Below the pieces are notes generated by a model. It saw only the letters and a program-made list of their open reading frames with translations. It was not told where the DNA came from and did no database searches. From contig CAAFXD010000183.1 of assembly GCA_900766945.1 (NCBI GenBank), positions 1 through 49,329 of the forward strand: DNA of 49,329 nt, in the 5' to 3' direction. A program made the translations under genes and the position numbers. Source of the DNA: Clostridia bacterium. Lineage in GTDB: Bacteria; Bacillota; Clostridia; Oscillospirales; Acutalibacteraceae. This document shows, piece by piece, positions 31,315 to 40,771 of this stretch (the stretch's first letter is position 1; every line of letters begins with the position of its first letter).

Positions 31315-31911
31315 TTACGCGATGGAAATGTTGAAGTTGAATGTGCCCGTCCACATACCCGCCGAAATGTCCGGCGCGGCAATCGTCGCATCCTGCGTAG
31401 TCCAGTCAGCGGCAGTAATCTCGTTCTGTACGAAAGTTGTTTTTGCCTGTGTAACGGTTGCTTTCACATCTTCTTTCGGATTGCCAACCGCTTGCTCGGT
31501 GAGGGTGAAGTTTACACCTTCAAGAACGGCGTCAGCATCAACCGGTGCCACGGTAATTGTTTGGTCACCGGAAATATCACCTTTGACACCGATGCGGTAT
31601 TCACCGTTGCCGGTTGTACCGTCCAATATGATGGTTTTCGGAATTTTTACCGAATAGGTGGAGGATTTGGTTGCATAAACTTCCACCGCAGCCGTTTTGG
31701 ATTCGGTGGTCGCCGATGAGTCGGTAATGGTATCCTCATACACAGATGTTTTGCTCTGCGTTTCGTCGCTTCCCACAGCAGTTCCTGCGGAAAAATCAGC
31801 GGCAACGGAGCCGGTGGAATTGGTCAGGTTTGCAGCGAACACCGAAGTGCTCAAAAGACTTACGAGCACAATGGCGGTAAGCACGGTTAAGATGGTTTTT
31901 TTCTTGTTCAT
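31315..31911 (-). CDS. Secreted protein (198 aa) carrying the shared C-terminal module
   Basis: Signal peptide MNKKKTILTVLTAIVLVSLLSTSVFA from the ATG at 31911 (AAAGGAGAA SD). The C-terminal ~110 aa are paralogous to the C-terminus of the 1648-aa protein. Confidence 0.7.
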   Translation of the reverse strand: MNKKKTILTVLTAIVLVSLLSTSVFAANLTNSTGSVAADFSAGTAVGSDETQSKTSVYEDTITDSSATTESKTAAVEVYATKSSTYSVKIPKTIILDGTTGNGEYRIGVKGDISGDQTITVAPVDADAVLEGVNFTLTEQAVGNPKEDVKATVTQAKTTFVQNEITAADWTTQDATIAAPDISAGMWTGTFNFNISIA

Positions 31912-31983
31912 AGGAATCGTTCTCCTTTTTGTTTGAATTTTATTTTGTGATGGCTTTCCCTTTCTTCTATACATACACACAGG

Positions 31984-32907
31984 TCAAATAACGGTTATGT
32001 TCACGGTTACATTTGCACCGTTATATTGCGCCTGTGTAGTAATGTCATAAGTGGCAAGGTTTAATACCAACGAATATTCTCCGGGTGGCAGAATCTCTTT
32101 GGCGTTCCAATATACACATTTACCCGGGGGAATTAAATCCGTGGTACCTAAAATGGATTCCCCATTACGGACAGTAAATTTGAAATACACCGTATTGCCG
32201 GCGGGATTGATAAGGGGAATGTACGGGTTTTCCGCATTGATTATCAGCTTGTCATACCCGAATATCTCAATCTCTCCCTGATCGGCCGTAGAATTGTCGC
32301 TTGGCATATAGCCACTCCAATCCTCAGCCGTATCATCGACAGGCAATTTCGGTCTTGTTGTTTCTTCAACGGTTGGATATTCCGTGGTTGTCGGTGCCGG
32401 CGCAGGACTTTTTGTGCACCCCTTAAATCCGCCGAGGAAAAGCAACAGCAGCAGGAGTAACAACGCGAACAGCGGCAACAACGGAAATAATGAAAATTTT
32501 GTAACAGCAACCCACTTTTGTTGGGCGGCGCCGTAACACTCGGTAACCCCATTGACAGCATCGAATGTTTTGACATCTGTTTCCGGGACGGTGCAGAGAT
32601 AGCCTTTTATTCTGCGAAAAAACGGGCGTTTTTTTAAGATGGCATATGTAGAATTGGCTGCGAAAAGTGTCCCGACTTGGTTGTCATCATTCTCCTTCAA
32701 GGGCTTAAACGCCGTATAACCGATAACTTGCATAGATTGTGCATCAATCTCGGGATTTTGTGACTGCTCGAGTTCTTTCTCTTTTTTTCGGAACTGCGTC
32801 TTTGTCAAATAATCGAGTTCATAGCGCTTTTTTTCTTGCTTGTTTTTGAGACGAAGCGTGCTGCATTCTTCTTGCAACCGCGTGTATAAATACATTTCAT
32901 TGCACAA
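31984..32907 (-). CDS. Single-pass membrane protein with a beta-rich extracellular C-terminal domain
   Basis: TTG start 6 nt after a GGAGGA SD. TM segment FSLFPLLPLFALLLLLLLLFLGGF, followed by a P/T linker. Confidence 0.55.
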   Translation of the reverse strand: MCNEMYLYTRLQEECSTLRLKNKQEKKRYELDYLTKTQFRKKEKELEQSQNPEIDAQSMQVIGYTAFKPLKENDDNQVGTLFAANSTYAILKKRPFFRRIKGYLCTVPETDVKTFDAVNGVTECYGAAQQKWVAVTKFSLFPLLPLFALLLLLLLLFLGGFKGCTKSPAPAPTTTEYPTVEETTRPKLPVDDTAEDWSGYMPSDNSTADQGEIEIFGYDKLIINAENPYIPLINPAGNTVYFKFTVRNGESILGTTDLIPPGKCVYWNAKEILPPGEYSLVLNLATYDITTQAQYNGANVTVNITVI

Positions 32908-32922
32908 TGCAATTCCTCCTTT

Positions 32923-39832: not shown

Positions 39833-39874
39833 AATCATACACTCCTTTATATCAAACGGGATTGTGTTCGCTGT

Positions 39875-40153
39875 TTAAGATTTTTCGCAATCCCAAAGCG
39901 GATTTCCATATGGACGCCGAAATGTTGCTTCTCCGTCATCACAGCGGATCCAAAGCTCGTTGCTACTCGGAACAGAAAAATCGCCTAACGAGAGATTTGC
40001 AATTAAGGGCGTGCTCTTGTCGTTGCTTTCAAAAACAAGATAATTGTTTTGGCATATCGTCAGTTGCCCAACAGTATCTTTTTGCGCCAAAAGGGATTCA
40101 ATACTGGTGTTAACGAGTGTAACTTCGCAATAGGTGCCAGGTTTTATTGCCAT
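39875..40153 (-). CDS. Hypothetical small protein (92 aa)
   Basis: AAAGGAGAA SD 9 nt before the ATG. Co-oriented and tightly spaced with its neighbours. Confidence 0.45.
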   Translation of the reverse strand: MAIKPGTYCEVTLVNTSIESLLAQKDTVGQLTICQNNYLVFESNDKSTPLIANLSLGDFSVPSSNELWIRCDDGEATFRRPYGNPLWDCEKS

Positions 40154-40185
40154 AGGTTAGATTTCTCCTTTATTATTTTTTAGGA

Positions 40186-40771
40186 TCATAATGATTGAGA
40201 TTTTCTATATTTTTCTCGTTTGTGAGAGTTAATAAGTTCTTTGTTTTCAAACCGATACTGCCGCTGTTTTGCCAAAATTTCTTCCTTGTGTTCTTGATAG
40301 TATTTTCGTTTGTGAGCGAGAAGCCGTTCCCTATTTTCAGCCCAATATTCTTTTCTCTTTGCTGAAATTTCTTCTTTGTGCTCTTCGTAATACTTTCTCT
40401 GCCTTAAAGACGCAGTTCGCACAATCACGGTCACACACTTCATCATACAGAACACTTGAAAATTCTTTCGGTGGATTTTTCCTCGCACGGTACTGTCGTT
40501 GATACTCCATTCTGTGTTCGTGATTTTTCTTGCAATATTCGCTGGTCTTTTTCTTTAAATCGCCCCACAGATTGTTATAAAACCTATACAACTCATTATG
40601 ATGTTGTATTTCCGCACGGCTGAGAGGTATAGCATATTTAAAACGATATCTTTGACTATTCGGTAAAAAAGGTTTTTGAGGCAGTTGCGAACAAATATGA
40701 TACAGCCTGCAATCGGTATGCGATGGGCAACAATGATATTGCTTATAAAGGCATATTGGATTATTAGACAT
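40186..40771 (-). pseudogene. Cys-rich / basic-repeat gene present as two overlapping ORFs (144 aa, then 100 aa in the +1 frame): frameshifted gene or programmed shift
   Basis: The ~15-aa basic repeat (EYxxENxExL..HKRKYY) starts in frame A (EYCKKNHEHRMEYQRQYRARKN) and continues only in frame B (RQRKYYEEHKEEISAKRKEYWAENRERLLAHKRKYYQEHKEE...). The frames overlap at 40337-40488. Confidence 0.4.

Follow-up and report, generated by a model that had tools for sequence, protein, structure and literature searches.

Gene content of the locus

This analysis concerns a row of minus-strand genes on a conjugative element from a Clostridia bacterium (contig CAAFXD010000183.1); the whole stretch of 49,329 nucleotides (nt) is referred to below as the window. 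The region is a composite of a conserved trio of genes, an optional pilin-like gene and an unrelated inserted cassette. The conserved core (31315-37869) encodes a membrane protein of 307 amino acids (aa), a secreted protein of 198 aa and a giant SpaA-containing exoprotein. Its features are listed here with the source of each in brackets; ORF stands for open reading frame.

31315-31911, minus strand: small secreted subunit, 198 aa (ORF list)
31738-31827, minus strand: conserved motif of ~30 aa, residues 29-58 of the 198-aa protein (family alignment)
31318-31686, minus strand: shared module in the 198-aa protein, residues ~76-198 (pairwise comparison and profile search)
31984-32907, minus strand: single-pass membrane protein, 307 aa (ORF list)
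32923-37869, minus strand: giant exoprotein, 1648 aa (ORF list)
32926-33267, minus strand: shared module at the C-terminus of the giant, residues ~1535-1648 (pairwise comparison)
31244-31275, minus strand: intrinsic terminator ending the gene row (folding against shuffles)

Intergenic distances within the row are 13-72 nt, and the terminator is a stem-loop of -22 kcal/mol (z = -7.8 against shuffles) followed by UUUUCGUUUG. The ORFs, spacing and terminator that an initial annotation of this DNA had described on the minus strand are all present. A scan for sigma-70 promoters returned sites no more numerous than in shuffled sequence.

Conservation of the trio

Genes of the 307-aa and 198-aa types adjoin in 10 lineages, with small-subunit identities from 97% down to 35%. 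These lineages are the window with its sister element L002, L007, L008, L011, L014, L015/16/L018, L020-22, L023/24, L025 and the fragmentary L019. Beside the pair stands a giant gene in every locus but L025; the contigs of L018 and L019 end too early for its presence to be judged. As such, the complete trio is found adjacent in about 9 diverged conjugative-element lineages, in the order giant, membrane protein, small subunit or in the order membrane protein, small subunit, giant. It usually lies between a thioester adhesin gene and genes for SSB, primase or relaxase, and most trio loci contain conjugation or plasmid genes. Furthermore, the membrane-protein/small-subunit pair is retained at 35%/24% identity on the plasmid-like scaffold L025. 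The sole exception with enough flanking sequence is L013, where only a 163-aa remnant of the giant is left and the place of the 307-aa homologue is taken by another membrane protein, of 409 aa.

Two proposals of the initial annotation are borne out, namely that the conjugative element carries an uncharacterised surface or adhesion module with no assembly machinery of a known kind in the window, and that the single-pass membrane protein is tightly linked to the exoproteins. A pattern scan of genomes recovered only 2 species representatives of GTDB, the metagenome scan gave 6 loci, and the phage collection yielded a single scaffold, L025, which was deposited as unverified and is plasmid-like on inspection. 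Neither megablast of the region against PLSDB plasmids nor tblastn of the 198-aa protein and one short family member against plasmids gave a match.

A SpoVG-family gene lies directly upstream of the trio's membrane-protein gene in L007 (8626-9006), L011 (8649-9026) and L020 (8619-8957), and just downstream of the small-subunit gene in L013 (10589-11182). The window has no such gene; where present, it may regulate this gene set.

Exoproteins, shared module and motif

In the giant, a signal peptide is followed by ~1450 aa in which no domain was recognised, then by a single SpaA/CnaB-like domain (1455-1541) and, at the extreme C-terminus, the shared module. It had been described as a beta-helix, leucine-rich repeat (LRR) and CnaB protein; the SpaA/CnaB-like domain is confirmed, and Pfam does not support the other regions. 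Homologues of 930-1642 aa with the same SpaA and module C-terminus are encoded in L002, L007, L008, L015, L016, L020 and L023, and partial copies cut by the contig end in L011 and L014. The 198-aa protein is made up of a signal peptide, the ~30-aa motif, a variable linker and the module, a beta-sandwich of ~110 aa. The signal peptides of both exoproteins are of the ordinary Sec type.

The C-terminal modules of the two exoproteins are 36% identical over 132 aa (E = 6e-20), in agreement with the shared module claimed earlier. The reported lack of a sortase signal also holds, as no LPXTG-like motif occurs in the C-terminal 60 residues of the 1648-aa protein or of five other giants, or anywhere in the 198-aa protein. 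A word-indexed search with the 198-aa protein found 23 homologue clusters, and an exhaustive profile search with the module found 1,944 representative clusters at E <= 1e-3 and 1,390 at E <= 1e-10; the family count of at least 1,900 clusters refers to clustering at 50% identity. The module matches no Pfam or NCBIfam model, and profile searches of the PDB found no sequence relative. In most family proteins it follows the signal peptide directly and precedes BspA-type LRR or DUF285 regions, and in a minority, including the giants of the conjugative elements, it is the last domain. Its final residues read WxGxFxFxI, not WxL. Since the family is large, unannotated and present on many LRR-type surface proteins, establishing the function of the module would annotate thousands of proteins.

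Two weak family matches were followed up. The NCBIfam model 'SAG1386/EF1546 surface-associated protein' matched the 198-aa protein weakly and was dropped, as none of 10 short family members matched it. Among 62 module proteins, 6 have sub-threshold Pfam matches to DUF4402 (best 1.5e-5). We take DUF4402 to belong to the fimbrial adhesin clan; a literature search on DUF4402 returned no result.

Of the 171 family members examined, 70 contain the motif, whose consensus is [ND]S[VI]GS[VI]xxD...[VI]GxDxxQxKxSxY. It is mostly N-terminal to the module, and in six proteins (P0079, P0103, P0118, P0169, P0195 and P0213) it is C-terminal. Because some proteins have it before the module and others after it, it is a separable element. 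Within the conjugative-element loci the motif is carried by the small subunits, in degenerate form in L011, and is absent from all six giants checked, each of which ends in SpaA and module. By analogy, this distribution of motif and module is that of the shaft subunits and tip adhesins of chaperone-usher pili.

Membrane protein and predicted structures

The 307-aa protein is predicted to contain a cytoplasmic beta-rich N-domain, a transmembrane helix (~141-159), a conserved Cys, a Pro/Thr-rich linker and an immunoglobulin (Ig)-like domain (~212-307). The family alignment points to a cytoplasmic domain of ~135 aa and a basic cytoplasmic side. The protein has no Pfam match. Its AlphaFold2 (AF2) model, built from an alignment of 6 sequences, has a mean predicted local distance difference test score (pLDDT) of 68.5, with 85-93 in the C-terminal domain that is placed outside the cell. 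Chaperones of chaperone-usher systems account for 38 of the 50 top Foldseek hits of this ectodomain. The best match is FimC (E = 2.2e-3, probability 1.0, about 108 aligned columns), and FaeE, SfaE, Caf1M, CupB2, YadV, DraB, PapD and CsuC also match the model. Pfam found neither PapD_N nor PapD_C in 11 members of the membrane-protein family.

The model of the 198-aa protein, from 18 aligned sequences, has a mean pLDDT of 74.5. The module is predicted as a seven-strand sandwich (~65-92) and the motif is of low confidence (~50-60). A strongly conserved, movable motif modelled in this way is as expected of a separable interacting element. Chaperone-usher pilins or pilin domains of adhesins make up 16 of the 50 top Foldseek hits and all of the best five. 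CsuA/B is the best match (E = 2e-3, probability 1.0; template modelling (TM) score <= 0.48), and SafA, HdaB, FimG, CsuE and the Pap tip complex are among the others. The Fimbrial and SCPU families of Pfam have no match among module proteins, and hhalign found no relation between the membrane-protein and module families. Two independent fold queries, from adjacent genes, point to both partner classes of chaperone-usher assembly, which at the level of predicted models is a weak but consistent signal.

A nearly invariant Cys (residue ~164) follows the transmembrane helix of the 307-aa family directly, in contexts such as 'LSHCPK' or 'FKGCTK'. The arrangement resembles a lipobox behind an internal signal-anchor.

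Comparison with known surface systems

The initial annotation held that the set corresponds to no nameable system. This was too strong, as its four-part logic matches that of the WxL/Csc clusters of Bacilli (Lactobacillales, Listeria), the closest known architecture, although the sequence signatures of those clusters are absent. WxL clusters encode a small and a large secreted WxL protein, the domain always being C-terminal in the large one, together with a DUF916 beta-sandwich membrane protein that binds WxL proteins and usually an LPXTG protein (PMC9772566). Similarly, the trio pairs a short secreted protein of ~200 aa with a large one that has adhesin-type domains, and the two share a domain, which in the large protein is always C-terminal. 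A gene for a membrane-anchored beta-sandwich protein always accompanies them, an LPXTG protein is usually encoded close by, and neither of the domain-sharing proteins has a sortase signal.

There are also differences. The trio's membrane protein appears to be oriented N-in with its ~135-aa cytoplasmic domain, in contrast to the C-terminal anchor of the WxL system; the trio occurs in Clostridia and on conjugative elements; its LPXTG partner is a 1,420-aa thioester adhesin; and a detachable ~30-aa motif sets its small proteins apart from its large ones. The WxL family (PF13731) has no match in the 198-aa and 1648-aa proteins and does not figure in the list of 25 families obtained for 62 module proteins, and DUF916 and DUF3324 have none in 11 membrane-protein homologues at E <= 10. 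A WxL domain is defined by two WxL motifs 68-106 residues apart, and no such pair at this spacing occurs in the trio proteins. Since the WxL and DUF916 signatures are absent, the trio is not a member of the WxL family.

A rival reading is a WxL/Csc-like surface complex. The module might be a retention domain, held non-covalently on the 307-aa ectodomain or on peptidoglycan, that tethers the giant in a non-polymeric complex, and the small protein would then be a second cargo, a spacer or a competitor, with no donor-strand exchange and no fibre. This agrees with the four-part architecture, in which DUF916 binds WxL proteins (PMC9772566), and with the module's usual position, N-terminal on LRR/DUF285 proteins, in the wider family. 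Moreover, distant homologues of the 307-aa protein sit in clusters of exactly the WxL-like layout. The Clostridium baratii plasmid NZ_CP124309.1 (L028, 40348-45099) encodes a small secreted protein of 171 aa, the membrane-protein homologue, an LRR protein of 1,074 aa and an LPXTG protein of 188 aa, all annotated as hypothetical except the LRR and LPXTG proteins. Locus L026 has the same kind of layout plus a sortase and a signal peptidase, and a further cluster around a distant homologue is found on an Enterococcus faecalis plasmid (LR962603.1, 55031-56054). The clusters on plasmids of cultured organisms (C. baratii NZ_CP124309.1 and E. faecalis LR962603.1) are possible experimental models. However, besides lacking the WxL and DUF916 matches and the WxL motif pair, a retention complex of this kind leaves the conserved, movable motif of the small proteins unexplained, as well as the specific fold matches to pilins and chaperones. 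We regard it as a doubtful explanation.

A second point of comparison is the chaperone-usher pili of diderm bacteria (Fim, Pap, Saf, Caf, archaic Csu). At the fold level, and marginally, the small protein resembles their pilins and the 307-aa ectodomain their PapD-like chaperones. Their tip adhesins combine a functional region with a C-terminal pilin-like module that lacks a donor extension, as in the giant, and their shaft subunits combine an extension with a pilin-like module, as in the small protein. In contrast to the soluble two-domain chaperones of these pili, the trio's candidate chaperone has one Ig domain and would be membrane-tethered. The proposed donor motif is sometimes C-terminal to the module, and the trio comes with neither an usher nor an outer membrane, nor do its proteins belong by sequence to the Fimbrial, SCPU or PapD families. 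No usher-like gene is present in the window or related loci; none would be expected, because the Clostridia hosts of the related elements (Candidatus Fimenecus and Lachnospiraceae) are taken here to be monoderm.

The TasA/BsaA fibres of Bacillus and Clostridium perfringens share a monoderm host, a Sec-exported subunit and a disordered N-terminal segment proposed to enter the sheet of a neighbour. Like the product proposed for the trio, they are anchored in the membrane, not the wall, and they have a link to a type IV pilin. Unlike them, the trio adds a giant adhesin and a dedicated membrane protein. No TasA, camelysin or Peptidase_M73 domain was matched by Pfam in the window or the module proteins, and no SipW-type signal peptidase was found in the window. 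These Pfam scans covered 39 window ORFs, among them every non-nested minus-strand ORF of 90 aa or more (28 in all), with nested and plus-strand ORFs outside their scope. TasA is also not in the top 50 Foldseek hits of the 198-aa model. A TasA/BsaA system is ruled out by the lack of a TasA domain and of SipW among the ORFs scanned. A sortase pilus is ruled out too, as the exoproteins carry no LPXTG and the scanned ORFs include no sortase; the upstream 1420-aa adhesin alone has a sorting signal (IPKTG).

Proposed mechanism

The reading we prefer, at a probability of roughly 40%, is that the trio forms a membrane-anchored adhesive complex or fibre through strand complementation and serves in mating or colonisation. 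Here the 307-aa protein, N-in and C-out, would sit in the membrane as a type II protein, and its Ig-like ectodomain, tethered in this way, would serve as both chaperone and anchor. Sec would export the giant adhesin and the small subunit, whose modules this ectodomain would capture. With the module as acceptor and the motif as donor element, the motif of a small subunit would complete the module of the giant, at the tip, or that of another small subunit, in the shaft. The terminal subunit would stay bound to the 307-aa ectodomain, and the product would be a membrane-anchored adhesive complex or a short fibre reaching through the wall. Beside the thioester/SpaA LPXTG adhesin, such a complex could promote donor-recipient contact and mating-pair formation, or gut colonisation.

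Gene content, conservation of the trio, the shared module, the distribution of the motif and the optional nature of the pilin are observed; topology, strand complementation, polymerisation and a part in mating are inferred. Points in favour of the proposal are the trio's conservation on conjugative elements, the presence of the motif in small proteins and its absence from giants, the motif's variable position and low-confidence modelling, the convergence of two fold searches on one system and the sub-threshold DUF4402 matches. There is also a monoderm precedent in C. perfringens, where BsaA builds membrane-anchored fibres through donor-strand exchange and BsaC secretion depends on type IV pilus genes (bioRxiv 10.1101/2024.11.04.621531).

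Several observations weigh against this proposal. The fold matches are marginal (E ~2e-3, TM scores of 0.2-0.5, root-mean-square deviations of 5-7 Å), Ig-like sandwiches are promiscuous in such searches, and the models come from shallow alignments (18 and 6 sequences). Pfam and PDB profile searches give no sequence link to the Fimbrial, SCPU or PapD families. The module is mostly N-terminal on LRR/DUF285 proteins, which suits a generic domain for surface retention or oligomerisation as well as it suits a pilin. Moreover, the proposal does not account for the cytoplasmic domain of the 307-aa protein, and a part in conjugation is suggested solely by genomic location.

A more specific version is unlikely in our view. 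Here the trio would be an usher-less donor-strand-exchange assembly with a membrane-tethered chaperone in monoderm Clostridia, building a mating or colonisation fibre with the giant as its tip adhesin. If true, it would be the first chaperone-usher-like pilus pathway outside diderm bacteria. The module and its movable motif would then mark out a large and so far unrecognised Firmicutes family, at least 1,900 clusters strong, of surface proteins that assemble themselves. Some versions would be coupled to type IV filament machinery, as with the pilin in the window and L011 and the Tad-like locus L025. Should the likeness in fold reflect a likeness in mechanism, assembly by strand complementation with its own dedicated chaperone would extend to monoderms.

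Cell contact by Gram-positive conjugative elements is poorly understood, and few adhesins are characterised, for example PrgB and the thioester adhesins. Across a whole group of gut-Clostridia elements, the trio constitutes a second surface system that is conserved and encoded next to the thioester adhesin.

Pilin-like gene and a possible type IV filament link

Directly upstream of the giant gene lies a further ORF.

37885-38856, minus strand: pilin-like ORF (ORF list)

The true start is most likely the ATG at 38838, which gives a protein of 317 aa (37885-38838). It is a type IV pilin-like protein, as annotated, with a canonical class III signal (MNRKKG|FTLIELIVVVAILG) that has G at -1, a hydrophobic alpha-1 helix and Glu at +5. 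It matches Pfam N_methyl (5.3e-10), TIGR02532 (5e-9) and the GspG, ComGC and PilA N-terminal models, and residues 7-63 match the alpha-1 helices of solved pilins.

Full-length homologues are rare, with only four clusters among 5.8 billion proteins. The pilin occurs with the trio in the window/L002 and in L011 only (32% identity), directly upstream of the giant in both, which amounts to two of the ~9 giant-carrying lineages. The other homologues (45-62% identity) are single chromosomal genes of Ca. Fimenecus with no trio nearby. Because few trio loci have the pilin and its relatives stand alone on chromosomes, it is an optional accessory, and the element has probably captured the gene from a chromosome of its host lineage. 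Its inclusion in the unit holds for the co-occurrence with the giant in two lineages, but does not extend to the other giant-carrying lineages or to the solitary chromosomal genes.

In L001, L003 and L005 the solitary pilin genes share a conserved position immediately upstream of mutS2. An invariant set of residues in the pilin family (C42, H69, C109, C137, C301 and H306) suggests a metal site or disulfides, and the sequence close to the C-terminus reads 'CTCxEH'.

In line with the initial annotation, PilB, PilC, PilD and sortase did not appear in the Pfam scans of the 39 window ORFs; T2SSE, T2SSF and Peptidase_A24 likewise had no match there. No assembly ATPase, platform protein or prepilin peptidase is present near the chromosomal pilin homologues. 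With no ATPase, platform protein or peptidase among the scanned ORFs that accompany the pilin, a self-contained type IV pilus locus is ruled out. In the preferred strand-complementation mechanism, the pilin would instead be processed and assembled by type IV pilus machinery of the host, and might help the 180-kDa adhesin through or beyond the peptidoglycan.

Two observations favour a filament-assisted route of this kind, namely the C. perfringens precedent given above and the scaffold L025 (MT835474.1, 15828-34418), deposited as 'UNVERIFIED Bacteriophage sp.', in which genes resembling such machinery stand beside the pair. The scaffold is plasmid-like (ParM-like ALP_N, NlpC/P60) and the cluster lies at 4528-9606. 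It encodes a CpaF/TadA-like ATPase (best PDB matches afGspE, 6e-16, and CpaF, 1e-12), a polytopic protein of 521 aa and two small hydrophobic, putatively Flp-like ORFs, followed by the 307-aa homologue and a module protein of 203 aa.

It could be argued from these loci that the system as a whole depends on a type IV filament for export. The pilin would form a pseudopilus with PilB/PilC/PilD or Tad proteins of the host and present the giant through the wall, much as in a Gram-positive type II secretion system, with the module and the 307-aa protein serving in docking or alignment. In C. perfringens, for comparison, BsaC secretion needs PilA3 and the type IV pilus genes, which also aid BsaA export (bioRxiv 10.1101/2024.11.04.621531). 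The canonical prepilin signal fits this reading, as do the position of pilins only 32% identical directly upstream of the giant in two lineages and that of the L025 pair directly downstream of the ATPase and the 521-aa polytopic protein. However, seven of the ~9 giant-carrying lineages have no pilin or type IV filament gene nearby, the pilin's homologues are solitary on chromosomes, the scanned window ORFs encode no ATPase, platform protein or peptidase, and both exoproteins have ordinary Sec signal peptides. Filament-dependent export is judged improbable.

Accessory cassette

Upstream of the pilin lie the following genes. Lengths in base pairs are given as bp.

38851-40816, minus strand: accessory cassette, 1,966 bp (comparison with L002)
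38870-39838, minus strand: zinc-ribbon protein with two transmembrane segments, 322 aa (ORF list)
39875-40153, minus strand: 92-aa gene (ORF list)
40186-40488, minus strand: 100-aa ORF overlapping the 144-aa ORF in another frame (ORF list)
40337-40771, minus strand: Cys-rich/basic-repeat ORF, 144 aa (ORF list)

The sister element L002 is 95-97% identical over the whole region, yet its thioester adhesin gene is followed directly by the pilin gene, with 37 bp in place of window positions 38851-40816; the pilin, giant, 307-aa and 198-aa genes are intact. The Cys-rich, 92-aa and zinc-ribbon genes have no homologues in any other related locus compared. Since they are missing from L002 and from all other related loci, they form an accessory cassette outside the system, and 38851-40816 is an unrelated insertion that does not belong to the conserved module. 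Every Pfam and NCBIfam match of the cassette proteins is below threshold, including those of the zinc-ribbon protein to T4SS_pilin and ABZJ_00895, and an exact look-up found no copy of the zinc-ribbon protein on record.

The Cys-rich first gene is present, but not as a single intact ORF. The 144-aa and 100-aa ORFs, in overlapping frames, contain the same basic repeat (K/R-Y-x-x-N-K/R-E). Because both frames share it, the two probably belong to a single Cys-rich/basic-repeat gene that a 1-nt frameshift near 40420 has broken, through either pseudogene decay or a sequencing error.

The proposal that all seven to eight genes, the zinc-ribbon and Cys-rich proteins included, form one dedicated surface-display or mating-adhesion system drew on their common orientation, tight spacing and single shared terminator. 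It does not survive the comparison of loci, where the Cys-rich, 92-aa and zinc-ribbon genes fail to co-occur with the rest. Together these three genes make up a 1,966-bp indel that L002, at 96% identity, lacks while keeping the remaining genes. No other related locus has them, and the first gene carries a frameshift. That they nevertheless belong to one system with the trio is highly improbable.

Conjugative-element context

Beyond the cassette stands a large adhesin gene.

40911-45173, minus strand: thioester/SpaA wall-anchored adhesin, 1420 aa (Pfam)

This protein combines a thioester domain with 10 SpaA domains and has IPKTG as its sorting signal (Pfam TED and SpaA, 2.4e-98), and homologues are encoded upstream of the trio in L002, L007, L008, L011 and L020-22. 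It is part of the same functional neighbourhood as the trio, though it lies beyond the coordinates of the initial annotation. Thioester-domain adhesins are reportedly known from Gram-positive conjugative elements, for example pLS20. The upstream gene belongs to this kind, unlike the trio proteins, which have neither a thioester domain nor a sortase signal. The adjacency of thioester adhesin and trio in most related elements suggests a common role in mating contact.

The Pfam scans identify the window as a Clostridia-type conjugative element. Its genes include an M23 peptidase, VirB4, PrgI, a VirB2-like protein, VirD4, DUF3801, a MobA-type relaxase and NikA, as well as a primase-like protein, PcfM, a giant polyvalent protein with MutS-I, methylase and helicase parts, LPD28 and SSB. 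The related elements are assigned to Ca. Fimenecus and one Lachnospiraceae bacterium.

The giant methylase/helicase gene is interrupted at ~15919-23162 by an insertion of ~7.2 kilobases with a guanine-cytosine content of 51-54%, against 42-46% in the flanks. The insertion carries a Mob_Pre relaxase, an AAA_25 protein, a helix-turn-helix protein, TnpV and a large serine recombinase, and leaves a 2272-aa part (23150-29968) and a 522-aa part (14287-15855) of the interrupted gene; L008 is colinear across the site. A separate 148-aa ORF matching TnpV (PF14198, 5e-44; 28768-29214, minus strand) lies wholly within the 2272-aa ORF in another frame, over a low-complexity stretch of that protein. It may be a nested or overlapping gene, or the 2272-aa ORF may be over-extended.

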